Shown here one piece after another: positions 38,937 through 58,828 of a DNA stretch of 64,000 bases. Source of the stretch: an uncultured delta proteobacterium. GTDB lineage: Bacteria; Myxococcota_A; UBA9160; SMWR01. The stretch is from NCBI GenBank assembly GCA_963832165.1, contig CAWHTE010000004.1, forward strand, positions 640,001-704,000, given 5' to 3'. The translations under genes and the position numbers were made by a program. Each line of letters begins with the position of its first letter. Positions within the stretch are counted from its first letter, which is position 1. Under the pieces are notes generated by a model. It was not told where the DNA came from and made no database searches. It saw only the letters and a program-made list of their open reading frames with translations.

Positions 38937-40268
38937 ATGGCGACTCGCGAGCGATACATCGACGACGACGCGGGGCAGGGCATCTTCCGCGTGTGCCGAC
39001 GGGCGTTCCTCGATCCGGACGTGCTCGCGGCCGAGCGCGAGCGGATCTTCGACCACGCCTGGCTCTATCTCGGGCACGAGTCCGAGGTGGCCGCGCCGGG
39101 TGATTTCCGCACGCGCGAGCTGGGCGCGCGCCGGATCGTGTTCGTGCGCGGCAAGGACCGCGCCGTGCGCGCGCTGCTCAACTCGTGCACACACCGCGGT
39201 GCCGAGGTGTGCCGCGAGCGCTCCGGGAACGCGCGGAGCTTCCAGTGCTTCTATCACGGCTGGACGTTCGGCAACGACGGGCGGCTGATCGGCGTGCCCG
39301 GCGACGAGGCCTACGCGCCCGGCTTCTCGCGCGAGCGGCTCGGGCTGCGCGAGGCGCCGCGGCTCGAGCAGTACCGCGGCTTCTATTTCGTGAGCTTCGA
39401 TCCCGAGATCGTCCCGCTGCGCGAATACCTCACGGGCGCGGCGGAATATCTCGACCTCATCGTGGACCAGTCCGAGCTCGGCATGGAGATCGTGGGCGGC
39501 ACGCAGTCGTATGCGATCAATGCGAACTGGAAGCTGCTCGTCGAGAACAGCTACGACGGCTACCACGCCAACGTCGCGCACGCGCGCTACCTGAAGTGGC
39601 TCGCGTCGACCGGAGCGGTCGGGCTGCCGCGTGGCACGACCTGGAACCGCGCGCGCTCGCTCGGCAACGGGCATGCCGTGGTCGAGTACACCGCCGCGTG
39701 GGGGCGCCCGATCGCGCACTGGGTGCCGTCTTTCGGCGAGGACGCCGCACCCGAGATCGCGGAGATCCGCGCGAAGCTCGAGGAGCGGCTGGGTGCCGAG
39801 CGCGCGCACCGGATCGCCACGACGAGCCGCAACCTCGGGATCTTCCCCAATCTCGTCGTGAACGACATCATGGCGATCACGGTTCGCACGTTCCATCCGA
39901 TCGCGCCCGGGCGCATGCATGTGGAGGCGTGGTCCCTCGCACCGCGCGGCGAGGCGCCCGCGCACCGCAAGCACCGGCTCGAGAACTTCCTGACCTTCCT
40001 GGGCCCCGGCGGGTTCGCGACACCCGACGACATCGAGGGCCTCGAGTCGTGCCAGCGCGCCTACCAGGGAACGCCCGAGGACTGGAACGACCTGTCCCGC
40101 GACGCGCTGAGGCCCGACCCGCCGATCACGGGCGAGCACCAGATGCGTACGTTCTGGCGACACTGGCAGGAGCGCATGACGCCGCAGAAGGCGCTCGAGG
40201 AGGCGCGCCAGCAAGTTTCGCGCAGCGAGCCAAAGGCGAGCGGAGACCAGCAGTATGCAGCCGGTTAG
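38937..40268 (+). CDS. Rieske aromatic ring-hydroxylating dioxygenase alpha subunit (benzoate/p-cumate-like)
   Basis: CTHRG...CFYHGW Rieske motif; NWKLLVENSYDGYHANVAH iron site; PDD. Confidence 0.93.
   Translation: MATRERYIDDDAGQGIFRVCRRAFLDPDVLAAERERIFDHAWLYLGHESEVAAPGDFRTRELGARRIVFVRGKDRAVRALLNSCTHRGAEVCRERSGNARSFQCFYHGWTFGNDGRLIGVPGDEAYAPGFSRERLGLREAPRLEQYRGFYFVSFDPEIVPLREYLTGAAEYLDLIVDQSELGMEIVGGTQSYAINANWKLLVENSYDGYHANVAHARYLKWLASTGAVGLPRGTTWNRARSLGNGHAVVEYTAAWGRPIAHWVPSFGEDAAPEIAEIRAKLEERLGAERAHRIATTSRNLGIFPNLVVNDIMAITVRTFHPIAPGRMHVEAWSLAPRGEAPAHRKHRLENFLTFLGPGGFATPDDIEGLESCQRAYQGTPEDWNDLSRDALRPDPPITGEHQMRTFWRHWQERMTPQKALEEARQQVSRSEPKASGDQQYAAG
40211..40249 (+). repeat. Intragenic ~40-bp repeat, copy 1
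   Basis: GCAAGTTTCGCGCAGCGAGCCAAAGGCGAGCGGAGACCA, read as QVSRSEPKASGDQ. Confidence 0.85.
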
Positions 40269-46782: not shown

Positions 46783-48351
46783 CTAAGACTCGCCGATCAC
46801 GCCGCCGTCGCGCAGGCGGTGCTTCTGCACCTTGCCCAGCGCGTTGCGCGGCAGCACCTCGACCGCATGCAGCAGGCGCGGCTGCTTGTAGGGCGCGAGC
46901 CGGTCCGCGAGGAACGCGCGCAGCTCGGCGAGATCGGGCGGAGCAGGGCCCTCGACGTAGGCCGTCACCACCTCGCCCCATTCCGGCGACGGCGTCCCGA
47001 CCACCGCGGCGTCCGCGATCGCGGGATGCGCGCGCAGCGCGTCCTCGACCTCGCGCGGGTACACGTTGTAGCCGCCGCTGATGATGAGCTCCTTCGCGCG
47101 GCCCGTGATCCGCAGATAGCCGGCCGGATCGAGCTCGCCGAGATCGCCCGTGCGGAACCAGCCGTCGGGTGTGAACGCCTCCGCGTTGGCGTCGGGACGC
47201 TCCCAGTAGCCCGCGAACACGTTCGGGCCGCGCACCTCGATCTGCGCGGGTGAGCCAGCCCGATGGTCTTCGCTCGCCTTCGGCTCGCTGCGCGCAACTT
47301 GCGTTAGTCGCACCTCGACGCCGGGCAGCGGCAGCCCGACCGTGCCGGGCCGGCGCTCGCCGTCGACGGGGTTCGACACCAGCATCACGGTCTCGGTCAT
47401 GCCGTAGCGCTCGAGTATGCGCTGGCCGCACGCGCGCTCGAACTCCGCGTGTTGGTCCGCGGGCAGTGCGGCCGAGCCCGACACGCACAGGCGCAGCGCG
47501 CGCAGCGCGTGCGCGTTCCCGGATGCGAGGATCCGGTGGTACATCGTGGGCACGCCGAAGAAGAGCGTTGCACGCGCGCGCGCGATCGCGCTCGCAACCG
47601 CATCCGGGTCGAATTGCGGCAGGAGCCACGCCGACGCGCCCGCATGGAGCGTGCCGTGCAGGCCCACGCCGAGCCCGTGCATGTGGAAGAGCGGCAGCGC
47701 GAGCACGAGGCGATCGTCGGCGGTCCAGCGCCACGCGATCCGCAGCGACTCGGCGCTCGCGAGCAGGTTCGCGTGCGAGAGCACGGCGCCCTTCGGGCGG
47801 CCCGTCGTGCCGGACGTGTAGCCGATCAGCGCGGGCGCATCGGGCGCGGCGGCGTCGAGCGCAGGCGGCTCCGCGTCGGGAAACGCGAGTGCGGGCGTCG
47901 TGCACAGCAGTGCGCGATCGGCCGCGCGCAGCGCGTCGATGCGCGCGGGATCGTCCGCGATCGCGGCGCGCGGGCGCGCATCGCCCACGAGGTGGGCGAG
48001 CTCGGCCGCGCGATAGGCGGTGTTCGCGGGCACCACGACGAGCCCGAGGCGCAGACACGCGACGTGCGCCACGACGAGATCGAGCGACGCCGCGGCCGAA
48101 ACGAGCACGCGGTCGCCCGCGCGCAGACCCGCGCCGTGGAGGCGGCCGGCCGCGCGCCGGCTCGCCGCGTCGAGCGCGCCGTAGCTCTGCTCGTCGCCGC
48201 GCTCGTCGCAGAGCGCCACGCGGTCGCTCGCGCGCGCGAAGTGACGCGCCCAGCTGCGCGGCAGCGTTCCGGCGCCGCCCGCGGTGGGATCGAATGCGGT
48301 GCCATCTTCGTAGGGCGGATTAGCGCGAAGGGCGTAATCCGCCAAATCCAA
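46783..48351 (-). CDS. Acyl-CoA synthetase (MatB/malonyl-CoA synthetase-like)
   Basis: YTSGTTGRPKG, LPLFHMHGL, ERYGMTE, WFRTGD, PRNALGKVQK. Confidence 0.92.
   Translation of the reverse strand: MDLADYALRANPPYEDGTAFDPTAGGAGTLPRSWARHFARASDRVALCDERGDEQSYGALDAASRRAAGRLHGAGLRAGDRVLVSAAASLDLVVAHVACLRLGLVVVPANTAYRAAELAHLVGDARPRAAIADDPARIDALRAADRALLCTTPALAFPDAEPPALDAAAPDAPALIGYTSGTTGRPKGAVLSHANLLASAESLRIAWRWTADDRLVLALPLFHMHGLGVGLHGTLHAGASAWLLPQFDPDAVASAIARARATLFFGVPTMYHRILASGNAHALRALRLCVSGSAALPADQHAEFERACGQRILERYGMTETVMLVSNPVDGERRPGTVGLPLPGVEVRLTQVARSEPKASEDHRAGSPAQIEVRGPNVFAGYWERPDANAEAFTPDGWFRTGDLGELDPAGYLRITGRAKELIISGGYNVYPREVEDALRAHPAIADAAVVGTPSPEWGEVVTAYVEGPAPPDLAELRAFLADRLAPYKQPRLLHAVEVLPRNALGKVQKHRLRDGGVIGES
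47261..47303 (-). repeat. Intragenic ~40-bp repeat, copy 2
   Basis: CGCAAGTTGCGCGCAGCGAGCCGAAGGCGAGCGAAGACCATCG, read as QVARSEPKASEDHR. Confidence 0.9.
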
Positions 48352-48354
48352 CCG

Positions 48355-49581
48355 TCACGACTCCTCGGCCACTCCGAAATGATCGCAGTAGAACGCGAAG
48401 CGCCGGCGCTCGACGAGCGGGTCGAGCCCCATCTCCTCGAGCGAGTAGTGGTGCACGCCGTGCGCGCCCTGCGGCTTGCGCGCCACGTAGTCGACCACCG
48501 TCTGGCGCAGCGTGGGCGCCATGCGCCAGCCGAGCGCCGCGTAGATCCGCTCGACCGTGCCGCCCGGATCGGCGACCAGATCGGCATAGCGCACGTCGAC
48601 GAAGCGCTCGTCGGGGAGCTCGCCGTGCGCGCGCTGCTCGATCTGGCGCCGGTAGATGGTGGCGTAGCCCGCGGCCGTCGCCTCGGCGCCCGCTGCGGGA
48701 TCGGACACCTCGCAGCGCATCCACTTGAGCGTGCCCATCAGCGAGAGCGAGGAGGGGATCGTCTTGAGCGGATCGCGGTGGGTCTGGATGATGTGCGCCT
48801 CGGGGTAGACCGCGAATAGCGCCCGCAGCTGGAAGAGATGGCTCGGCGCCTTGAGCAGCCAGCGTTCAGCGCGCGCGCGCTGCTGCAGCGTCTGCAGGAC
48901 GCGCCGGTGATAGCGGTAGGCGGGGCGCTGATCGGCCTTGGCGAGGTAGGTCTGATAGGTGGGGACGTGGTGGCAGCCGCCCCACTGATCCGACAGGAAC
49001 TCGTTCATCGTGATGAAGATGCACTCGTTCGGGAGGTCGCCCGCGTTGGCATGCATCGCCTCGTACTCGGGCTGGAGGTCGTGCCAGAACGTGGTCTCGG
49101 CATCGCCCACGGCGCGCAGCGCGTCGTTCGCGAGCGCCTCGACCGGATGCAGCATCTCCCACATCACGGGCGCGCGATGCGCGGGGTCGAGCGCGAGCAG
49201 CTCGTGCAGGATCGAGGTTCCCGAGCGCGGGCTCCCGACCACGAACACGGGTGGGTGGATCGGATCGCGCAGGATCTCGGGCCGGCGACCCCACAGCTCC
49301 GCGAGCTGGAGCCGGTTGCGCAGCGTGCGCAGGATCTCCGCGCGCGCGAGCAGGCGGCCCGCGAGGTGCAGGTGTGCCTCGCGCTCGAGCGCCGCCACGA
49401 GCACGTCGAAGTGCGCGCGCCACTCGTCGCCGCCGAAGTCGTCGAGACCCGTGTCGCGGCGCGCCGTGGTGATCAGCTCGTCCGGATCGAGCGACACGAG
49501 TGCCTTCGCGCCGCCCGCCGCGGGTCCGTGCGCGTTCAGGCGCTGCATCCAGCGCGGTCGCTGCGGCGGCTTCCAGGGCAT
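48355..49581 (-). CDS. Sulfotransferase family protein
   Basis: PAPS-binding VVGSPRSGTSILHELL; WLLKAPSH; IQTHRDP. Confidence 0.9.
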   Translation of the reverse strand: MPWKPPQRPRWMQRLNAHGPAAGGAKALVSLDPDELITTARRDTGLDDFGGDEWRAHFDVLVAALEREAHLHLAGRLLARAEILRTLRNRLQLAELWGRRPEILRDPIHPPVFVVGSPRSGTSILHELLALDPAHRAPVMWEMLHPVEALANDALRAVGDAETTFWHDLQPEYEAMHANAGDLPNECIFITMNEFLSDQWGGCHHVPTYQTYLAKADQRPAYRYHRRVLQTLQQRARAERWLLKAPSHLFQLRALFAVYPEAHIIQTHRDPLKTIPSSLSLMGTLKWMRCEVSDPAAGAEATAAGYATIYRRQIEQRAHGELPDERFVDVRYADLVADPGGTVERIYAALGWRMAPTLRQTVVDYVARKPQGAHGVHHYSLEEMGLDPLVERRRFAFYCDHFGVAEES

Positions 49582-49604
49582 CCGATCTCTCGCGCTAGCG
49601 CGGA

Positions 49605-49991
49605 TTACTTGAGGAGCTGAACCAGGATCAGAGTTGCCAGCGACCGCCACGAAGAACGCCGCCGTGCGCAGGTAGGGCACGCGCGATGTAGATGAACGTA
49701 TAGCGAGCCGACCCCAGAAGAATAGGGTGGCTCCGAGCGCGGTTGCCCCGTTGGCCTTGCCCGCAACATGGGCGACGAGCACCAGAATCGCGAAGAAAGC
49801 CAGATTCTCGGTCGTGTTGGCATGCGACCGGATCGCTCTGGAAACCCAGGGGCCACGTCGAGGCCCGTATCGCGATTGCCAAACGCCCACGCCACGCCGC
49901 CCGGAACACGAGAGCGACCGACGAGATAGATCAGGGGAATCAGCGCCGACCACAAGCCCGTGGCTACGAGCATCCAGAGATCAGTTGTCAT
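49605..49991 (-). pseudogene. MAPEG family membrane protein with several frameshifts (decay or sequencing error)
   Basis: Fragments AWAFGNRD, RAIRSHANTTENLAFFA and VPYLRT lie in different frames. Confidence 0.7.
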
Positions 49992-50122
49992 GATGCCTCC
50001 CTAGCAAGATCGGACCGCTTCGCGTCACCGCGCGACCTGGGCGCGGGGAGCTCAACGATAGCCACTCAGGCCGGAACTCGGCCTGGACGCAAAGGCGAGG
50101 TAGGAGCCGCAGCGGTGAGTGA

Positions 50123-50386
50123 TCACGCAAGCAGCGCATCGTGCCATTCTCGGATCGAATAGGACTTGACGAGGCCCTCGAGGGCAAAGGGGTCCTGGCT
50201 GACAAACGCCTCGGCTGCTTCCCGCGTCCGGAAGATCGCCATGTTGCCGCGGTTCTCGAACGGGCCGATGCCGATGACGTCCCCGCGCGCGATGAACTGA
50301 TCGACCAGCTCCTTGTGGCGCGGGTAGACCGCCATGATCTGGTCCATCGTCGCACCCGAGGGTTCACCGATCACGACGAATTTCAT
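50123..50386 (-). CDS. YciI family protein
   Basis: H..GPF..G.MAIF..AEAFVSQDPFALEGLV; GGAGG RBS. Confidence 0.82.
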   Translation of the reverse strand: MKFVVIGEPSGATMDQIMAVYPRHKELVDQFIARGDVIGIGPFENRGNMAIFRTREAAEAFVSQDPFALEGLVKSYSIREWHDALLA

Positions 50387-50410
50387 GGCTGTCCTCCACG
50401 TGGGCTGACG

Positions 50411-51468
50411 TCAGCCCGCACTCGATCTACGGCGCGACCGGAGGGCGATAGTGCCGGCGAAAGCGATCCCGAGCAGCAGCGCCAGAAGCGCGGGGTTGGA
50501 TAGCGCGGGGATGGGTGGCGCCGTGCGCGGAAGCTTCGCCACGCGGAAACCGAGGTCGCTGAACTGGTCCGACGAGTGCATGTCGACGGGACGGCTGTCC
50601 GCGAGCATGGAGCCGAGGCCCCAGAACCACGACCCGCCGCGAATGCCGCGGATGTCCGACTCGGGCACCGTTTCGTTGAACTCCTGCACGTTGCCGCCCT
50701 GGTCGAACGTGCCGTAGGCGCTCGCGCTGTTCTCGTGGGCCCCGACCTCCGTGCGGTAGTACGGGGCGCCAATCGTGCGATCGCCGACGGAGCCGCCGGA
50801 GAACGTCGCGTTGTTACCCGGATCGGGATCGATCAGATCGTTGCTGACGTCGGAATTGTGCGCCGGTCGGAGTAGTTGAAGTAGTTCCCGGTCACGCCGT
50901 CGTTCTTGTGATAGGCCGCCTTGTACCACTCGTTCTCCGTCGGGATGACCCAGGTGGCGTCCGGCTCGCGGACGACGTCCTCCAACTCCTTGTCGCTGGT
51001 CATCCCGTTGAGGAAATACGAGCCGTCCTCGGTGGTGGTCAGGTCCTGCGCGCCGGTCGGCTGGCCGTTGTGCAGCCAGTTGGCGAAGCGGGCCGCGTCG
51101 CCCCAGGAGACGAAGTTCACCGGTCGGTTCGCCCAGTCCGGCGCGACACTGTACGTGTAGCTCCCCGGCGAGCCGGTCCGCTCGATCTTGCAGCCCTCTG
51201 CGTGCGTCCACATGTTCACGTGGTAGAGCGCGTAGGTATCGGTCGCCGCCACGGCGTTGAGGAACGCGGCGTACTGACCGGCCGTCACCTCGTACTTGCC
51301 GATGGCGTACACGTAGTCCACGGCGCCGAAGATGCCTTGGAACGGCTGAGGATCCCCCGCGTTGCCCGGGTTCCCGACGGTGACGGTCTCGATCACCACC
51401 GGCGGCGCTCCCTGAGCCTGCGTGACGCAGACGCCACTCAACACACCCGCCGCCAGCACGATCTTCAA
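50411..51468 (-). CDS. FGE-sulfatase (SUMF1)-domain protein with IPTL-CTERM-like tail (frameshift near 50865)
   Basis: VTVGNPGN, IGKYEVT, PTENEWYKAAY; then DQGGNVQE, RGGSW, LGFRVA; tail PIPALSNPALLALL..RRR; start uncertain. Confidence 0.8.
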
Positions 51469-51485
51469 GGTGTGAAGGGCTACTG

Positions 51486-51941
51486 TTAGGCGGCGGTGAA
51501 CGTGCATAGATGGTCCTGGCGGATGACCCCCACGTGGATGAGGCCCTGAGACTCGTGAATCGTGCATCCGATCTGGTACGGCCATCGAGACCCCACGACG
51601 AAGTCGAAACTCGCCCGGTCGGGAACGAAACGGTGAGTTTTCGTAGGGATGCCGATGACGGCCTGAACCTGCGCAAGGGACATTCCGGACTGAAGCGGAA
51701 GCTGGATCGCGGCTAGAACCCGAGCGCTCAGTGCTTCGGGGAGCTCGCGTAGATCGAGCTCGATGGATCCGAGTGTGTCCGGAGAGGCTTCAGGGCACAG
51801 GAAGGCGGTGAATCCGTCGGCTTCGCCGACCCAGACAGCCCCCATGAACTCCCAGTTGAGCAGCGTGGCGATCCGAGAGGCGTCGGGATGGAACTGAGAG
51901 AGACGCAAGCGCTCGAAGTGCTCGTAGGGAATCAGTTCCAT
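51486..51941 (-). CDS. Hypothetical protein, gene-cassette-like
   Basis: Lower GC; its stop TAA lies within GCCTAAC (attC R'' consensus RYYYAAC). Confidence 0.6.
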   Translation of the reverse strand: MELIPYEHFERLRLSQFHPDASRIATLLNWEFMGAVWVGEADGFTAFLCPEASPDTLGSIELDLRELPEALSARVLAAIQLPLQSGMSLAQVQAVIGIPTKTHRFVPDRASFDFVVGSRWPYQIGCTIHESQGLIHVGVIRQDHLCTFTAA

Positions 51942-51987
51942 GGCTCGCGAAGGTCTGTCCACCGCTGCACATTGTATTAAGCACTTG

Positions 51988-52422
51988 CTAGACGGCGGCC
52001 TCTGCGTTCCCGTCGCGTAGCCCATAGAAAAGCAGCCCACAGAGGGCGATGATGGCGATGCCGGCGGTGACGAGTCCGACTCCGATGACTCCCTGAAACG
52101 GCGTACCCCGAACAGCACCGGCAGCCAGCGGAAGCATCGTGGCACCGGCGCCCCAGATCCCGCCGAGAAGCGGCATCAGCGAGGCAACGAAGAAGGAGTA
52201 GGGACCGAGCCAGAATGCAAGCCGAGACGCACCCGCTCCCAGCCGGAGGTGGGGCCAGACGAGCCCGAACGCGAGAAGAAAGAGAGCTCCGACCACCGCA
52301 TTGACGTGGGCTGCGACGCCGAGGCGAGGCACCGCGAGTGCCGGAATCGCCAGCCCGATGAGGAGACCCACAAACAGCAGCGCGACACCAAGTCGCAGGA
52401 GGCGGCGATCCGGATCTGTCAC
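51988..52422 (-). CDS. Four-TM membrane protein, styrene-oxide-isomerase (StyC)-like
   Basis: LRLGVALLFVGLLIG..PRLGVAAHVNA..LLAFGLVWP; stop lies in the R''-like GTCTAGC. Confidence 0.6.
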   Translation of the reverse strand: MTDPDRRLLRLGVALLFVGLLIGLAIPALAVPRLGVAAHVNAVVGALFLLAFGLVWPHLRLGAGASRLAFWLGPYSFFVASLMPLLGGIWGAGATMLPLAAGAVRGTPFQGVIGVGLVTAGIAIIALCGLLFYGLRDGNAEAAV

Positions 52423-52439
52423 GGATTTCTCCCTCGTAG

Positions 52440-52482
52440 TGGAGCGCGCTTGGCTCGGCAGCCGCAGCGCCTTGCGCGGCGG
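52440..52482 (-). mobile_element. Truncated/degenerate attC (left arm only)
   Basis: CCGCCGCGCAAGGCGCTGCGGCTGCCGAGCCAAGCGCGCTCCA closely matches the left arm of the attC at 54998. Confidence 0.6.
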
Positions 52483-53104
52483 ATTCGCGAACCGCGGATT
52501 CGAGCTTCGGGAGAAACTCCCGAAGCAGTTCCCGCAAGCTGTCTGACATGGTGACTCGCATCGCCTGCTTGATGAAACCCGCACTCGAGCCCGTGTACTC
52601 GGCATCCGCATCGGTAACGACTCGATCCACGCGTTCTGCCAAGAGGGTCCTCTCGCCTTCTCGGAGCGTGAATTCCAGAGAGGTGATGCCGGCCACACGG
52701 ATGAATAGGAAGCCGACCGCCTGGGAGCAAAAGGCGCGAACCCTGCTTTCCAGCGTGAGAGGCGGCGACACCGTGGTCGCAGTATGGACCTTTGAGAACA
52801 GGCCTGAGTTCTCGATCTCGCGCGCAAGCTCATCTTGAATGATGCGACTTGCTGCGTCACCCCAGAACGTATCGCTTCGACATCCCGTCCAACGGGTCGA
52901 GGCTACGGGCTCACCATAGTGATCTTTCCGAGAGTCAACGGGCAACGGTACATAGAGGACACGGTGATCTCGGTGCTGGGAACGAAAGCCCGAGTCGGTG
53001 TGATGAAAGGTGCCGGCCGCCCCTGGAACCCGGGCCGCACCTCGGTTGCAGGCGACTACCGACATGAGAACGATCGCAGCAATACGGACGCACACGATGT
53101 TCAT
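52475..53104 (-). CDS. Hypothetical lipoprotein, cassette gene (natural stop apparently lost; ORF reads on to 51977)
   Basis: Lipobox VVAC; ATG just after GTTAGGC; protein-like sequence ends at the degenerate attC. Confidence 0.55.
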
Positions 53105-53115
53105 TGCATTCCGCC

Positions 53116-53140
53116 GCCTAACTCTTGATGGACTGCGTCC
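53116..53140 (-). mobile_element. attI-like site 2
   Basis: GGACGCAGTCCATCAAGA-GTTAGGC: GTTRRRY core without attC arms; similar to the site at 57226-57251. Confidence 0.5.
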
Positions 53141-53256
53141 TCCGGGCATCCAACGCCGCGACGAACCGCAGCCGATTGTAATTGCGGGAAGACGGGGTCG
53201 GGAGCTTTCCGTCTGAAACGTCTATCCGCTCCGTGGCCGAGGGGGTAGAGTCGGTT

Positions 53257-54309
53257 GTGCGGTGGCTCCCGGCCCGTCTCCTCGCCGGCTTCGCGACGCT
53301 CGTGGCGTCGGTCGCTTCCGCCAACCCCTGGTCCACGCGCGCGCCGCTGCTCGAGGCGGTGCAGGAGGTCGCGGTCGCCGAACTCGGCGGCAAGGTCTAC
53401 GTGGTGGGGGGCCTCCAGGGCACCGCGATCCTGAACCGGGTCGAGGTCTGGGACCCGGTCGCCGATGCCTGGAGCTATGTCGCGACACTCCCGATCCCGC
53501 TCCACCACACGACGGCGACGGCCGTCGGCGGCAAGCTCTACGTGATCGGGGGCTGGCCCAACTTCTTCGCCACGCCGACCGCCCGCGTCTTCGCCTACGA
53601 CCCGGGCGCGAACTCGTGGACGGAGAAGACGTCGATGCCGACTGCGCGCGGCTCGCCGGCGGCCGCCGCCGTGGGCGGGAAGATCTACGTCGCGGGCGGC
53701 GACCCCGGCGCGACCGACTTCGCCGTCTACGATCCGGTCCTGAATACGTGGCAATCGCTTCCGGCGATGCCAACCGGGCGCCAGCACCTCGCCGCCGTGG
53801 GAATCGGCGGGCGCTTCTACGCGATCGCAGGTCGCACGAGCCTCGGCGCCGGCCAGGACAACGTCGCCGCCTTCGAGGTCTACGACCCGGGCACGGGCCT
53901 GTGGAGCGCCCTTGCCCCGATCCCGACGGCGCGGAGCGGCCTCGCGGCCGCCGTCGCGCACGATCGCTACGCCGTGGTCCTTGGCGGCGAGGGCAACGAC
54001 GCGAGCCCGTCCGGCGTCTTCGGCGAGGTCGAGGCCTACGACACCGTCGCGGGTCAGTGGATCGGGCTCACGCCGATGCCGACGCCGCGGCACGGGATCG
54101 GCGCCGCGAGCCTCGGCCGCCGCATCCACGTGCCGGGGGGAGGTCCGCAGGAAGGCTTCGGCCTGAGCGCCGTCCACGAGGTCTACGATTCGAGCCAGGA
54201 GTTCGTCGCGCCCCCCATTCCTGCGCTCGGGGCGGCGGGCCTGCTCGCGCTCGCCCTGGCACTCGCGGGCGCGGGGCTGCTCGTCGTGCGCGCGCGGGGC
54301 TCGCGCTAG
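53257..54309 (+). CDS. Kelch-repeat beta-propeller with IPTL-CTERM-like tail
   Basis: Six GGK(V/L/I)YV.GG...YDP..W repeats; tail PPIPALGAAGLLALALALAGAG..R. Confidence 0.88.
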   Translation: MRWLPARLLAGFATLVASVASANPWSTRAPLLEAVQEVAVAELGGKVYVVGGLQGTAILNRVEVWDPVADAWSYVATLPIPLHHTTATAVGGKLYVIGGWPNFFATPTARVFAYDPGANSWTEKTSMPTARGSPAAAAVGGKIYVAGGDPGATDFAVYDPVLNTWQSLPAMPTGRQHLAAVGIGGRFYAIAGRTSLGAGQDNVAAFEVYDPGTGLWSALAPIPTARSGLAAAVAHDRYAVVLGGEGNDASPSGVFGEVEAYDTVAGQWIGLTPMPTPRHGIGAASLGRRIHVPGGGPQEGFGLSAVHEVYDSSQEFVAPPIPALGAAGLLALALALAGAGLLVVRARGSR

Positions 54310-54339
54310 GCGAGTATTCAGCAGCTCGCCCCGGCCTCA

Positions 54340-54855
54340 CTAGGCGGCAGGCTCGAGGATGAGGGCCATAGGGAGGGCGTCCACGAAGGCGCCATCGACC
54401 TCGACTGCCCCGCGGCGGCATCCCTCTACCACGAAACCCTTTCGCTCGTAGAGCCGACGCGCTCTGGGATTGTTCGAAAGAACCTCGAGCTCCAGTCTTC
54501 GGATCGATCGATGCTTCGCCCATGTGATCGCGGCGTCTAGAAGTCGAGACCCAATGCCTTGACCTCGGTAGGGCGCGAGCACGGACATGCCAAGACTTGC
54601 CCCGTGAGCGGTTTGCGGACGCTCGTGGTGCGCCGCTACTCCAAGATTCGCAACGATGCGGTCGCCGATTGTCGCTACGAAGAATTCCGCGTGCTCCCCT
54701 GCGAATTGGCGAATGAAGGCAGTTTCTTCCTCTAGCGTCGGGACGCTGTCGTAGCGGAAGATTGTTGGTAGGCGTTCCGCACGGAGAGCCGTAACGTAGT
54801 CAATGAGTGCGGGTACGTCGCGCTCTCCGGCACTACGGATCGTGATCGTAGGCAT
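54340..54855 (-). CDS. GNAT family N-acetyltransferase (cassette gene)
   Basis: LGMSVLAPYRGQGIGSRL, NPRARRLYERKGF; ATG a few bases after the attC R' core. Confidence 0.88.
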   Translation of the reverse strand: MPTITIRSAGERDVPALIDYVTALRAERLPTIFRYDSVPTLEEETAFIRQFAGEHAEFFVATIGDRIVANLGVAAHHERPQTAHGASLGMSVLAPYRGQGIGSRLLDAAITWAKHRSIRRLELEVLSNNPRARRLYERKGFVVEGCRRGAVEVDGAFVDALPMALILEPAA

Positions 54856-54863
54856 TCCCTGTC

Positions 54864-54998
54864 GCATAACGGACCGGCGCTTAGCTGCGAGCCACAGTGC
54901 CTCCGCAGCCGGTTCGAAGCGCCCGAGGTCGATGCGAAACGGTACCATGGATCGATTGGAACGCGCTGTGGCTCGGCAGCTGCAGCGGCTTGTTGAGC
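54864..54998 (-). mobile_element. Integron attC site
   Basis: R'' GCTCAAC, L'' GCTGCAGC, arms GCTGCCGAGCCACAG/CTGTGGCTCGCAGC, L' GCTAAGC, R' GTTATGC. Confidence 0.88.
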
Positions 54999-55042
54999 GG
55001 CGGGCCGCTCGACCTGTCTACTACTACGGAGAGATCTGTCGG

Positions 55043-55638
55043 ATGTCGGAATCTGCAGATCAACACCCTCCGATCCGGGCGCCGCTTGGCGATGTGATGA
55101 CCGATCGGCTCGAGCTTCGGAAATTCCGCTCGGAGATCTCGATGAGCTGGCGGTAGTGTTCGAGAAGCCCGAGGTCTGGAGGTTTCCGTACGGGCGGGGC
55201 TTCACGCGCGAGGAGACAGCTGCCTTTTTGGAGACGCAACTCGCGGAGTGGAGCACCTGTGGATTCGGGTGCTGGCTCGCTCGGGAACGCAAGAGCGATC
55301 GAGTCGTCGGCTACGTAGGACTATCCGTTCCGGTCTTTCTTCCTGCGATTCTGCCCGCCGTGGAGGTTGGATGGCGCTTCGATCCCGGGGTCTGGGGCAG
55401 GGGTTATGCGAGCGAAGGTGCACGTGCCGCCCTCGCAGAGGCATTTGCCACACTGGGACTGAGCGAGGTCTGCTCGGTTCCCCAGGCAGACAATCCGGCG
55501 TCGAGCCGAGTCTGCGAGCGTCTTGGGATGCGCTTTGAGCGGGAGGTAGTGATACCAGCCAACGCGCGGCGAGGGATGCTTGCGGGCCTGCTCTACAAGA
55601 TGTCGCGAGCTGCATGGTCGGCAGCGGTTCAGGGTTGA
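55043..55638 (+). CDS. RimJ/RimL-type GNAT acetyltransferase, antisense to cassette direction (frameshift near 55135)
   Basis: TDRLELRKFR, then VEVGWRF..WGRGYASE and NPASSRVCERLGM in another frame. Confidence 0.8.
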
Positions 55639-55679
55639 ACCGCTTCTTGCGCTGCGCCTCCACCTCGGTCGTTCCCGCC

Positions 55680-55795
55680 GCCCAACGTCTGGCCGCTAAG
55701 CTGCGGCCGCGCGCGATGCTACCAAGACCCGTGTTGGCTCAGGCCACCCGTCGAACTTGAAGCCCGTGGCCGGCAGCTTCAGCGGCTTGTTGGAC
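55680..55795 (-). mobile_element. Integron attC site
   Basis: R'' GTCCAAC, L'' GCTGAAGC, L' GCTTAGC, R' GTTGGGC, with complementary arms. Confidence 0.88.
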
Positions 55796-55804
55796 GGCGC
55801 CACA

Positions 55805-57170
55805 CTACACCGTTGGTCTGACATTGTTGTTCAGGTGGAACAAGTTCGTCGGATCGAGCCTGTTCTTCAGCGCGACGAGCCGTGCGTAGTTCGGCCCGTA
55901 CGCGTGCTCGACCGCGCCTTCGGTCTCGTCCTCGGTCTGGTAGTTCACGTAGGACTCGCGGGCCATGTGGGGGCGCAGCGCATCGTAGGTGGCGCGCGCC
56001 CACGCGATGTTCTTCTCGTCGTCCTTCGGGTCGAGCCACTGGGAGACGACCAGCAGGTTGTAGCTCTCGCGCCGGTGAGGGAACGCCGTCTCGCCGACGC
56101 CGACCCGTGCGGCGGCCCCATGGAAGTGCTCGAGAACGAGCCCGCTCATCGGCGAGGGGCAGACCGCGAACTGCGCGATGAGCGCGTCGATCGCCTCGTC
56201 GCTGAGTTCCGCGAGGAAGCTCGACTTCCAGTAGTTCCTCGCACCGCGGGGGAAGCCCGGGTCGAAGAGCTTCGTGTTCGTGTCCACGTAGCTCGCGGGG
56301 CCGATGGTGTCGACCACGGGCGACCGAACCGCTTGATCGGCCGGGTCGCCGCTTCGCCCTCGGCCAGCGAGCCGCAATGACACGCGACGATCGCCGCCAG
56401 AGGTACGCCCGAGCCGTCGGGGGCGATGCAACAGTCCACCGTAGAGCGTGAGCTCGTCGGGCACGGAAGAGGTGACCTCGCGGAAGAACTGCAGCACGTC
56501 GCGCGCGCGTTCAATAGGGTGGGCCACGAGGCCGCTCGTGACCGGCCCCACCGGATGCAGCCGGTACTCGAACCACGAGACCACGCCGAAGTTCCCTCCC
56601 CCGCCCCGCAGCCCCCAGAACAGATCGCGGTCTCCCTCGGCGCTCGCCCGCACGACGTCGCCCGCAGCGGTGACGACCTCCGCAGAAATCAGGTTGTCGG
56701 CGGCGAGCCCGTGCTTGCCCATGAGCCAGCCGAGCCCGCCTCCGAGCGTAAGACCCGCGATTCCGGTCGTCGAGACGACGCCTCCGGTCGTGGCGAGGCC
56801 ATGGAGCTGGGTCTCGCGGTTAAACTCGCCCCACGTCACGCCTCCCTGGGCGCGCACCGTGCGGTGCCCGGGATCGACGTGGATGCCCTTCATCAGCGAG
56901 AGGTCGAGCATCAACCCGCCTTCGCAGACGGACTTCCCCGCGACGCTGTGACCGCCGCCGCGGACGGCGAGCTCGAGTTCGTGCGTGCGCGGCGAATCGA
57001 ACGGCGTCAATGACATCGGCGGTCCCGAGGCAGCGAGCGATCAGGGCCGGACGGCGGGCGAACATGCCGTTGTGGATGCGACGCACTTCGTCGTAATCAG
57101 CGTCGGTGGGCGTGAGGACGCCGCCGCGCAGGCTGGCCCGGAGATCGTTGAGCGCTGCTTCCTTGACCAT
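55805..57170 (-). CDS. FAD-binding oxidoreductase (berberine-bridge-enzyme-like), cassette gene, with several frameshifts
   Basis: YDEVRRIHN..RPALIARC; VRGGGHSVAG; DLFWGLRGGGGNFGVV; YVNY; LKNRLDPTNLFHLN; GAGGA RBS. Confidence 0.85.
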
Positions 57171-57225
57171 GGGTTTCCTCCTCTCTCAGCCCGCAACCGG
57201 CTTTGCCAGATCGCTGCTTGGCGCC

Positions 57226-57251
57226 GTCCAACTGTTAATGGATTGCGAGCC
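57226..57251 (-). mobile_element. attI-like site 1 heading the cassette array
   Basis: GGCTCGCAATCCATTAACA-GTTGGAC; the downstream TTGGACGGCGC is exactly complementary to GCGCCGTCCAAC at that cassette's attC. Confidence 0.6.
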
Positions 57252-57337
57252 CGATGGTAAACGCTGCGAGAGCTCGCAGCCTATTTGCTGGGTCGCGGTG
57301 GAGAGGTTCGGAAATCGCGTTGCTGGGGGCGATCCGC

Positions 57338-57357
57338 AACTGGATTTGAATCCAGTT
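57338..57357. promoter_or_regulatory. Perfect palindrome matching the CTG-N10-CAG LexA/SOS-box pattern
   Basis: AACTGGATT-TG-AATCCAGTT, about 100 bp from the attI-like site. Confidence 0.5.
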
Positions 57358-57595
57358 CGGGGAGCAAACGCTTGCGAACGTGCGAAGGCGTCGGGTTACG
57401 CCGAGGCGCGTCGGTGCCCGTGGGAGATCGAGGGAAAACAACGGGTTGGCGGCGAGGCGTCGTGCGGCCCCGGCGGGTCCCCGGCGGCGCGTGACCGCCT
57501 TCGTTTTCAGCGCGTGAGGCTCCTGCGGGGAAACGCCAGGATCGCCCAGGCGGGGCGATCGGCGGCCGGCCGTCTCCGAATGGCGGGGCGCCTTG

Positions 57596-58828
57596 CTAGC
57601 GGTAGCGGTTCCAGACCGCTTCGCGGCGGCGCGCGAGCTGTGCGCGCCGCGCTTCGGGCGTCACCGTGGGATGGTCGGGCGGCATCGCCTTGCGCACGGC
57701 GTCGAGCGACACCACGTGTGCGCGCGGTACCGGATTGGTGCGCGCCCACACCCAGCGGTACACGAGCAGGCCGCGCTGTCTCTCTTCGGTGTCGATCCAG
57801 TTCGGTGTCGCGGGATCGCGATGCGCGACGACGATCCGGATCACGCCATCGCCGTCGACGTGGGTCTGATGATCGTTCAGGCTGATCTGGCGGCGATCGA
57901 ACTCGCCGGTCTCGAGCCAGGGCAGGGTGTGGGTGACGAAGTTCCAGTAGTCGGCGTCGGGTCGCTCGACCTCGAGCACGAGCGCCTCGTCGGGCTCGAG
58001 ATTCCAGAAGCAGCTCCCGTACAGGATGTTGTCCGCGCCTCCGGGGGCGCTGCGCGCCGCGGCGGCCGCGTTCGGCGTCGCACGCGCCCAGCCCTGGCCC
58101 GTGTAGCGGCTCCAGTAGTCGACCGACGCCTCCACCCAGCGCGCGGTGCGCTCGAGCGCCGCCGCGAGCGCGCCCGGGTCGAGCAGCGGACGCGGCTCGC
58201 CCTCGGCGCCGACGCGCTCGATCTGGAAGATCGGCAGCACGTCGCGCTCCCAGTCGGACTGGTACAGACGGATCGTGAAGATGCGCGCGCGCGGATCCAG
58301 CTCGATGCAGTGCCCCTCGCCCACTCGATGGTCTTCGCTCGCCTTCGGCTCGCTGCGCGAAACTTGCGCAGACCCCTTCGGCACGAGCCAGATCTCGAGG
58401 CCGCCGTCGCTCGCGAGCGGCAGCTGGTCGAGCGAGCGCTCGCCGAACACGCCGTACTCGGAGAGCTGCATGTCGCCCTCGTGCAGCGAGAAGATCGCCT
58501 GGCGCAGGCCGCGCGCGTCGCGCGTCCACACGCGATAGGCGAGGCTCGGGTCGACGTTCGCGCGCAGGTAGATGTTGTCGGGGTTGGGGCCGCCCCACTG
58601 GTTCCAGGGGTTCTGATGGCTCACGAAACCCGGGAAGCGCGGATCGCCGGCTTCGATCTCCTGCTGCGCGGCGTAGATCAGCCAGCGCATGACCGCGCGG
58701 TAGCCCTCGCTGCGCGCGCGCGGGTCCGCGAAATCGCCGCTCTGGAGCCGCTCGCCGATCGCCTCGAGGCGGCTGCAGAACGCGCGCCACGCGGAGCCGT
58801 CGAGCAGCGCAGCGCCGGCGTCGGACAT
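57596..58828 (-). CDS. DUF1214-domain protein
   Basis: SAWRAFC, WGGPNPDNIY, IRLYQSDW, LEPDEALVLE, IVVAHRDP..PNWIDT. Confidence 0.8.
   Translation of the reverse strand: MSDAGAALLDGSAWRAFCSRLEAIGERLQSGDFADPRARSEGYRAVMRWLIYAAQQEIEAGDPRFPGFVSHQNPWNQWGGPNPDNIYLRANVDPSLAYRVWTRDARGLRQAIFSLHEGDMQLSEYGVFGERSLDQLPLASDGGLEIWLVPKGSAQVSRSEPKASEDHRVGEGHCIELDPRARIFTIRLYQSDWERDVLPIFQIERVGAEGEPRPLLDPGALAAALERTARWVEASVDYWSRYTGQGWARATPNAAAAARSAPGGADNILYGSCFWNLEPDEALVLEVERPDADYWNFVTHTLPWLETGEFDRRQISLNDHQTHVDGDGVIRIVVAHRDPATPNWIDTEERQRGLLVYRWVWARTNPVPRAHVVSLDAVRKAMPPDHPTVTPEARRAQLARRREAVWNRYR
58326..58368 (-). repeat. Intragenic ~40-bp repeat, copy 3
   Basis: CGCAAGTTTCGCGCAGCGAGCCGAAGGCGAGCGAAGACCATCG, read as QVSRSEPKASEDHR. 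Confidence 0.9.

Follow-up and report, generated by a model that had tools for sequence, protein, structure and literature searches.

Candidate trans-served attI platforms heading separate cassette arrays in an uncultured delta proteobacterial lineage

We analyzed a 64,000-nucleotide stretch of DNA (the window) from an uncultured delta proteobacterium (GTDB lineage Bacteria; Myxococcota_A; UBA9160; SMWR01), corresponding to positions 640,001 to 704,000 of the forward strand of contig CAWHTE010000004.1 in GenBank assembly GCA_963832165.1. In our numbering of genomes (G) and contigs (C), the source genome is G000 and the window is G000:C4:640001-704000; the assembly comprises 5.54 Mb in 11 contigs, with a G+C content of ~70% and 89% completeness. 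The window carries two sites that, judged by homology, are copies of the cognate attI of the integrons in this lineage, each heading an array of cassette genes with no integron integrase gene (intI) beside it. Comparison with related genomes makes it probable that such platforms are, at the level of the lineage, served in trans by an integrase (IntI) encoded elsewhere, and the two window sites themselves are probably idle now.

The two sites were first noticed as motifs identical at 15 of 18 nt, ending in the minus-strand cores listed in Table 1, and both are confirmed in the sequence. The 18-nt pattern occurs twice exactly in the 5.54 Mb of the assembly, three times at two mismatches and six times at three mismatches, and the similarity upstream of the window cores extends over 60-95 bp, well beyond the 18 nt first noticed. 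A strict exact pattern recovered site 1 alone from seven genomes of the same genus and was discarded as too narrow. The preliminary description had proposed a comparison with the attI found next to intI in this lineage, and here the resemblance is borne out: an independent hidden Markov model (HMM), built from eight intI-adjacent attI of relatives and zero G000 sequences, matches exactly five sites in G000 (E-values from 3e-10 to 7e-5), including both window sites (2.6e-6 and 5.2e-6), with the next match outside these sites at an E-value of 20 and the best match on the reversed genome at 1.4. The motif matches the intI-adjacent site in G005 and G006, which belong to the same genus, and in G018, and matches it more weakly in G031, G014, G046, G057 and G011; in each of these relatives it directly follows a co-oriented intI on the 3' side, the exception being G011, where the orientation is divergent. 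The window thus holds simple sites homologous to an intI-adjacent attI, and lacks an intI beside either array.

In its full form, this attI (type 1) is a platform of ~150-170 bp. Two core-like sites in inverted orientation lie at about -135 to -165 and a -10-like hexamer at about -57; a middle core-like palindrome comes next, followed by an L box, a spacer and the core GTTRRRY. By analogy with DR1/DR2 of attI1, the repeats of the platform may act as accessory IntI sites, and the hexamer is presumably part of the cassette promoter Pc. The exact hexamer is kept in 15 of 21 orphan copies (those without an adjacent intI), site 2 included. Both window sites are trimmed and lack the distal inverted pair: site 1 keeps ~95 bp with a degenerate -10-like box, the exact hexamer being lost, and site 2 keeps ~62 bp with an intact box at 53180-53175.

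A genome scan for further copies heading cassettes, also proposed at the outset, yielded three more in G000. Using a type-1 profile seeded with both window sites and a third copy, we located five type-1 copies (the two window sites, C5:198925, C7:814440 and C11:96168), clearly separated from background and each followed by cassette-like genes. Arrays were located with attC arm profiles and folding, based on our own models rather than those of IntegronFinder. The attC sites of this lineage have an L'-R' spacer of 8 nt and were missed by a first scan that assumed 5-6 nt, and a loose scan returned 154 candidates, mostly false, so that arm profiles were used instead. These profiles place G000 arrays on C1, C2 (two), C4 (the window), C5, C7 and C11. 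Both C2 arrays are headed by another conserved leader, which aligns with the attI beside the intI of G028 (type 2), and the C1 array has no leader, its first element being a disrupted gene joined to one half of an attC. An attI-type leader therefore heads seven of the eight G000 arrays found, counting the window as two, and G000 holds at least seven attI (five type-1 and two type-2), none with an integrase beside it.

The same layout recurs in relatives. IntI was scored at the TIGR02249 cut-off, with remnants sought by tblastn using IntI frames from 27 relative loci, and 33 of 60 relatives encode an IntI above the cut-off. Profile R1 (type 1) matches in 11 of 44 genomes of the family. Six genomes combine a single intI with two to six type-1 copies (six in G005, at least four in G006, four in G018, one of them coreless, four in G031, and two each in G014 and G011), and two genomes hold copies with no intI (one in G034 and five in G000). 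G035 has a single copy at a contig end, with flanking sequence identical to that beside its intI. The orphans of G031 lie inside contigs of 0.3-1.6 Mb, and one is on the intI contig itself, 438 kb away. The proposal of one integrase with many attI holds for relatives and is not supported for G000, in whose assembly no integron integrase was found. Searches with tblastn of up to 1.5 kb upstream of the type-1 orphans gave no IntI match at any of them, and among 22 extended loci the only IntI matches were two intI-bearing loci and the tyrosine integrase belonging to the C5 island. The upstream neighbors of orphan copies are unrelated ordinary genes. Across 27 type-1 copies (the 29 found minus the coreless G018 copy and a weak G027 site), identity averages 0.67 for copies of one genome and 0.58 for copies of different genomes, figures given without a P-value since related genomes are not independent. 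In a tree whose deep nodes are poorly supported, most type-1 copies have their nearest neighbor in their own genome or genus.

At the level of the class, profile R2 matches in 33 of 150 genomes, mostly weakly, and intI is present in the locus at 7 of 19 R2 sites inspected, one of these being coreless at a contig end. G068, a 100% complete assembly, carries four related orphans, with two full intI located on contigs other than theirs. In G116 as in G177, a single orphan accompanies a single adjacent copy, and G142 has an orphan copy and no full IntI. A second attI type shows the same multi-copy orphan pattern. The type-2 profile matches 18 sites in 8 of 44 genomes, of which 4 lie beside a near-full intI, 4 are preceded by 24-50 intI codons and 10 have no tblastn match.

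If orphan platforms are recombined in trans, their cassettes should be exchanged at the crossover, and the comparison of copies within genomes provides indirect evidence that they are. Not one of 53 same-genome pairs shares its first cassette, and the first 300 nt past the crossover are unrelated in all 53 (local scores of 8-14), even where the 60 nt upstream are 85-98% identical. In several pairs the shared upstream DNA is not intI: the identity is 87% over 851 bp for G005 C56/C61, where it reaches as far as tRNA-Gly and tRNA-Arg fragments, 76% over 416 bp for G006 C397/C466, and 66% over 479 bp for G000 C7/C11. The common ancestors of these pairs thus had no intI directly upstream, and their cassettes differ exactly from the crossover, which favors exchange in trans. 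Segments shared between arrays of one genome are IS110-like insertions, not cassette genes, and no single cassette was found in two arrays. Among the 21 orphans, the palindrome and L-box columns are ~0.59-0.62 identical, compared to 0.40 in linkers, and the hexamer window scores 0.48 because of gap placement.

Several side observations concern mobile elements at these platforms. In G017, three different attI copies (C19, C230 and C441, two of them at contig ends) are followed by one and the same sequence, which suggests one element repeatedly inserted at attI. Putative IS110-like insertions lie just inside attC in many arrays, namely those of G000 (C5, C7, C11, C2), G031 (C14, C16), G005 (C272) and G011 (C325), with copies 98-99% identical within G000 and within G031. 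At G000:C2:370000-371400, the first cassette is duplicated around an insertion sequence remnant that interrupts its attC.

Taken together, the favored reading is that the platform would have been copied or transported by mobile elements, with later loss of intI, and would persist by virtue of driving expression of the first cassettes while staying open to recombination in trans. Copies in the lineage likely go on gaining and losing cassettes through IntI made elsewhere. In this genome, IntI would have been lost or left unassembled, leaving the window copies and their attC to decay. The preliminary description had suggested stand-alone landing sites served in trans by a remote integrase. The cognate attI and the layout in the lineage agree with this suggestion; the missing G000 integrase, the trimmed sites, the loss of attC from array 2 and the orphans that are relics of intI deletion do not.

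The evidence that weighs against trans service comes mainly from missing enzymes and decayed sites. No IntI above the TIGR02249 cut-off is present in the 89%-complete G000 assembly, where tblastn returned distant tyrosine recombinases only and no intI remnant near the arrays. A full IntI is likewise absent from G034, G142 and G023, the last being 96% complete with six type-2 copies; the serving enzyme is therefore not always on hand. Most relatives' assemblies are fragmented, and 33 of 44 family genomes have no type-1 match. Four type-2 orphans retain 24-50 intI codons, one with an internal deletion, and a fifth retains ~40 bp. In the window, a sigma-70 consensus scan found no promoter at either site, arm profiles and folding revealed no intact attC in array 2, only remnants, and the homologs of its genes lie mostly outside cassettes (near attC arms in one of two genomes for gene 1 and at most one of eight, by eye, for gene 2, the only genomes with homologs among 224 of the class). 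Furthermore, an attI1-aadB-attI1 arrangement undergoes 100% excision by IntI1 (PMC12901181), so two intact attI in direct repeat would be expected to be unstable under an active IntI. The lack of an IntI, the trimmed platforms, the attC loss in array 2 and the persistence of two direct-repeat attI 4.1 kb apart indicate that both sites in the window are probably idle, although G000 might still be served by an IntI that is visiting or was left unassembled. Sequencing runs are neutral on site activity: none holds more than 8% of the words of the region, no RNA run holding it is listed, and 4 of 15 runs examined gave only contigs of other organisms, with no cassette gain or loss at either attI among the joints listed.

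Copies have arisen by at least two routes, truncation of intI and carriage by mobile DNA. Scattered breakpoints that keep intI 3' tips occur in G023 (C7, an internal deletion, C78 and C186), G014 (C40) and G017 (C396). Orphans with such tips are plain relics, and integrase loss is an established origin of orphan sites. Four orphans lie within tRNA-anchored islands: G005 C56 and C61 and G023 C109 share a common tRNA-fragment island end, and G000 C5 is flanked by tRNA-Glu on one side and by a 28-bp repeat of the tRNA 3' end on the other, together with tyrosine integrase and primase/helicase genes. The latter island (G000:C5:194000-203600), bounded by the tRNA repeat, also carries a helix-turn-helix gene and an attI-headed array. 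Other neighbors of orphan copies are tentatively labeled terminase-small-like, DUF222/HNH-like, Cas1-tail-like, IS110 or IS481. One fixed crossover start for all orphans was rejected, as their left ends fall at -54, -156, -159, -281, -327, -349, -356, -393 and -408, mostly without a core motif. At two loci the junctions do fall on core-like sites: G028:C84 is a 97% copy starting exactly at the distal core-like site, and in G023:C27 an attC is fused exactly at the middle core-like site, with a 54-bp attI piece. Because these junctions lie exactly on core-like sites, IntI may be able to move its own platform. The G028:C84 platform is fused to the last codons of a dehydrogenase-like gene, whose stop codon is supplied by the core-like site. 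A direct attI x attG route is unlikely, since attI1 itself was found not to insert at genome sites (10.1101/2022.09.11.507474), so that the platform must be moved in some other way. A bolder version of trans service, which we regard as conceivable though rather doubtful, is a self-spreading distributed integron: IntI would cross at the accessory core-like sites of the platform, the platform would move both cassette-like and as a cargo slot of tRNA-integrating satellites, one integrase would run a genome-wide docking network whose sites are expression-ready, and many database CALINs (clusters of attC lacking integron integrases) would be live outposts.

Of the rivals to trans service, the most resilient holds that all orphans are relics of once complete integrons, which took their cassettes then and exchanged none after losing intI, the motif surviving as a promoter or operator. 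The intI 3' tips and internal deletion before several type-2 orphans, the scattered non-core breakpoints, the existence of many-copy genomes without a full IntI (G000 and G023), the decay of the window copies and their attC, and the hexamer retained in most orphans are all consistent with it. We nevertheless consider it unlikely: pairs with common non-intI upstream DNA, reaching to a tRNA-fragment end, diverge precisely at the crossover, conservation of the L box and core equals that of the promoter-like box, and no type-1 orphan is preceded by an intI remnant in the upstream DNA searched (up to 1.5 kb). A second rival, which appears distinctly improbable, is that the window holds a single array, with site 2 serving as the internal delta-attI at the end of an atypical cassette (GNAT, Kelch and delta-attI), a situation known from class 1 and 2 integrons. 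Both sites do lie within one 8-kb insert, the attC-ORF (open reading frame)-delta-attI layout at 54869-53123 matches that in PMC12901181, and the attC fused to a 54-bp attI piece in G023:C27 offers a parallel. Against this, sites 1 and 2 are only ~0.62 identical and site 1 is nearer to the C5 copy, so that site 2 did not arise by recent copying of site 1; cassette 3 terminates in an R''-like remnant ahead of the convergent Kelch gene; and site 2 has its own -10-like box. Finally, attG-type secondary sites or chance look-alikes can be dismissed almost entirely, for while a minimal GWT site in the genome suffices for cassette insertion by IntI (10.1101/2022.09.11.507474), the window sites have 60-95 bp of homology to intI-adjacent attI at E-values of about 1e-6, with a clean gap to background.

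Table 1. Features of the attI-bearing insert, in window coordinates.
Feature	Coordinates	Strand	Remarks
Whole ~8-kb insert	49594..57601		Both attI, both arrays, and Kelch, FGE-sulfatase-like, YCII and MAPEG-like genes
Dispersed non-coding repeat, ~245 bp	57328..57567	minus	Ends in perfect 20-bp palindrome 57338-57357; abuts site 1
attI site 1, trimmed platform	57226..57327	minus	Core GTTRRRY 57232-57226, L box, spacer, core-like palindrome 57280-57263
Cassette 1 gene, FAD-binding/BBE oxidase	55805..57170	minus	Frame breaks near 56990, 56426 and 56323
attC 1, well formed	55680..55795	minus	Arm profiles; fold of the bottom strand at -38.5 kcal/mol for the region tested
Cassette 2 gene, GNAT acetyltransferase	55156..55638	plus	Opposite to array direction
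attC 2	54864..54998	minus	Both arms present; R'' mismatched, imperfectly paired
Cassette 3 gene, GNAT acetyltransferase	54340..54855	minus	R''-like remnant at end, no attC
Kelch-repeat protein, IPTL-CTERM-like tail	53257..54309	plus	No att sites
attI site 2, trimmed platform	53116..53184	minus	Core 53122-53116, L box, spacer, core-like palindrome
Array 2 gene 1, lipoprotein-like	52419..53104	minus	No Pfam or NCBIfam match
Array 2 gene 2, small membrane protein	51988..52422	minus	No family match; ~40-bp degenerate attC-like remnant follows
Array 2 gene 3	51486..51941	minus	No family match; R'' heptamer at end, no further attC

The features collected in Table 1 lie between a DUF1214-like gene (58828-57596) and a sulfotransferase gene (49581-48355). 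Among the 11 closest of 19 non-self DUF1214-like loci (the other 8 being matches at <=40% identity), the sulfotransferase lies within ~25 bp of the DUF1214-like gene in 8, and G032 and G021 have other neighbors; since 8 of 11 loci keep the two genes adjacent, the 49.6-57.6 kb region represents a single insertion into a conserved operon junction. Its ends carry a 7-bp direct repeat (57601-57595 and 49600-49594), which may be a target duplication. In the closest relative, a different ~530-bp insert occupies the same junction (G004:C78), which may therefore be an insertion hotspot. The Kelch gene, described initially as a non-cassette gene between the arrays, indeed has no att sites; it belongs to the insert and has no homolog at E<=1e-50 in 43 family genomes, and we accordingly rejected the idea that it is native DNA between two inserts.

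Array 1, with three cassette genes, two clustered attC and no integron integrase nearby, is a CALIN in the usual sense of a cluster of at least two attC. The initial view that each site heads its own mini-array thus stands for site 1 and is weaker for site 2, whose array has attC remnants only: gene 1 reads through a remnant attC 5' arm (~52480-52440), with its stop codon overlapping the first bases of gene 2. The cassette 1 oxidase has frame breaks near 56990, 56426 and 56323 that are absent from its homologs, and single-base breaks also affect the MAPEG-like and FGE-sulfatase-like genes (49605-51500, alongside the oxidase at 55805-57170) and genes of the C5 island; assembly error is a plausible cause.

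The repeat abutting site 1 has eight copies in G000, of which three lie directly before attI, one abuts the far end of a C2 array and four have no array. We rejected it as part of the attI platform, as five of eight copies have no attI behind them and no relative locus examined matched it. Its 20-bp palindrome recurs exactly at ~12 further places in G000, and pairs of it flank mobile-looking inserts of 1-2 kb (C3:51921/53841, C7:798970/800009 and C11:398369/399449), with flanks 70-80% alike, so that it possibly marks a target site or the end of an element. A REP-like repeat of ~40-50 bp occurs at 40211-40249, 47254-47303 and 58319-58368 of the window, one copy being an in-frame insertion inside the DUF1214-like gene that is absent from close homologs. 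A search of 49000-58500 against Rfam returned nothing at E<=0.5.

By their sequence features, the window arrays are best described as attI-headed CALINs. CALINs and single-attC SALINs (single attC lacking integron integrases) are attC-bounded cassettes with no intI nearby, and their proposed origins are intI loss, rearrangement and insertion at secondary sites (PMC4889954; 10.1101/2022.09.11.507474). Trans action of IntI on CALIN cassettes has also been stated (PMC9668308; 10.1101/2025.06.18.660453), and an inverted IntI clade is mentioned in PMC8352920. The literature thus already covers CALINs, the action of IntI on their cassettes in trans, and cassettes of the delta-attI kind. Unlike the CALINs described, seven of eight G000 arrays start at a recognizable attI platform, which escapes IntegronFinder's definition, as this program matches only the attI of classes 1-3, and exactly (PMC4889954). 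The system shares its attI, attC type and cassette pool with the sedentary chromosomal integron with co-oriented intI, from which it differs in matching one intI to several attI at unrelated loci instead of one to one. It also resembles the delta-attI cassettes of class 1 and 2 integrons, in which trimmed attI pieces lie away from intI and are still recombined by IntI1 (PMC12901181), but those sit within the array of one complete mobile integron, whereas the lineage copies head separate chromosomal arrays. Like attG sites, the platforms hold cassettes outside the integron locus; attG, however, needs only the GWT consensus (10.1101/2022.09.11.507474), whereas the lineage sites are homologous attI copies. 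In a literature search that left most subscription papers outside its reach, we found no description of separate arrays that are each headed by a full attI platform of their own.

Where CALINs come from and what state they are in is an open question: Cury et al. saw no intI pseudogene close to 95% of CALINs and described the frequency of CALINs as surprising (PMC4889954). Standard tools are blind to non-clinical attI. This lineage offers matched sets of intI, adjacent attI and orphan attI, of which the window is a partly decayed example. If many CALINs do keep a working attI and promoter, they would be gene entry points at many loci rather than dead arrays, and the capture capacity of integrons in such bacteria would have been undercounted.

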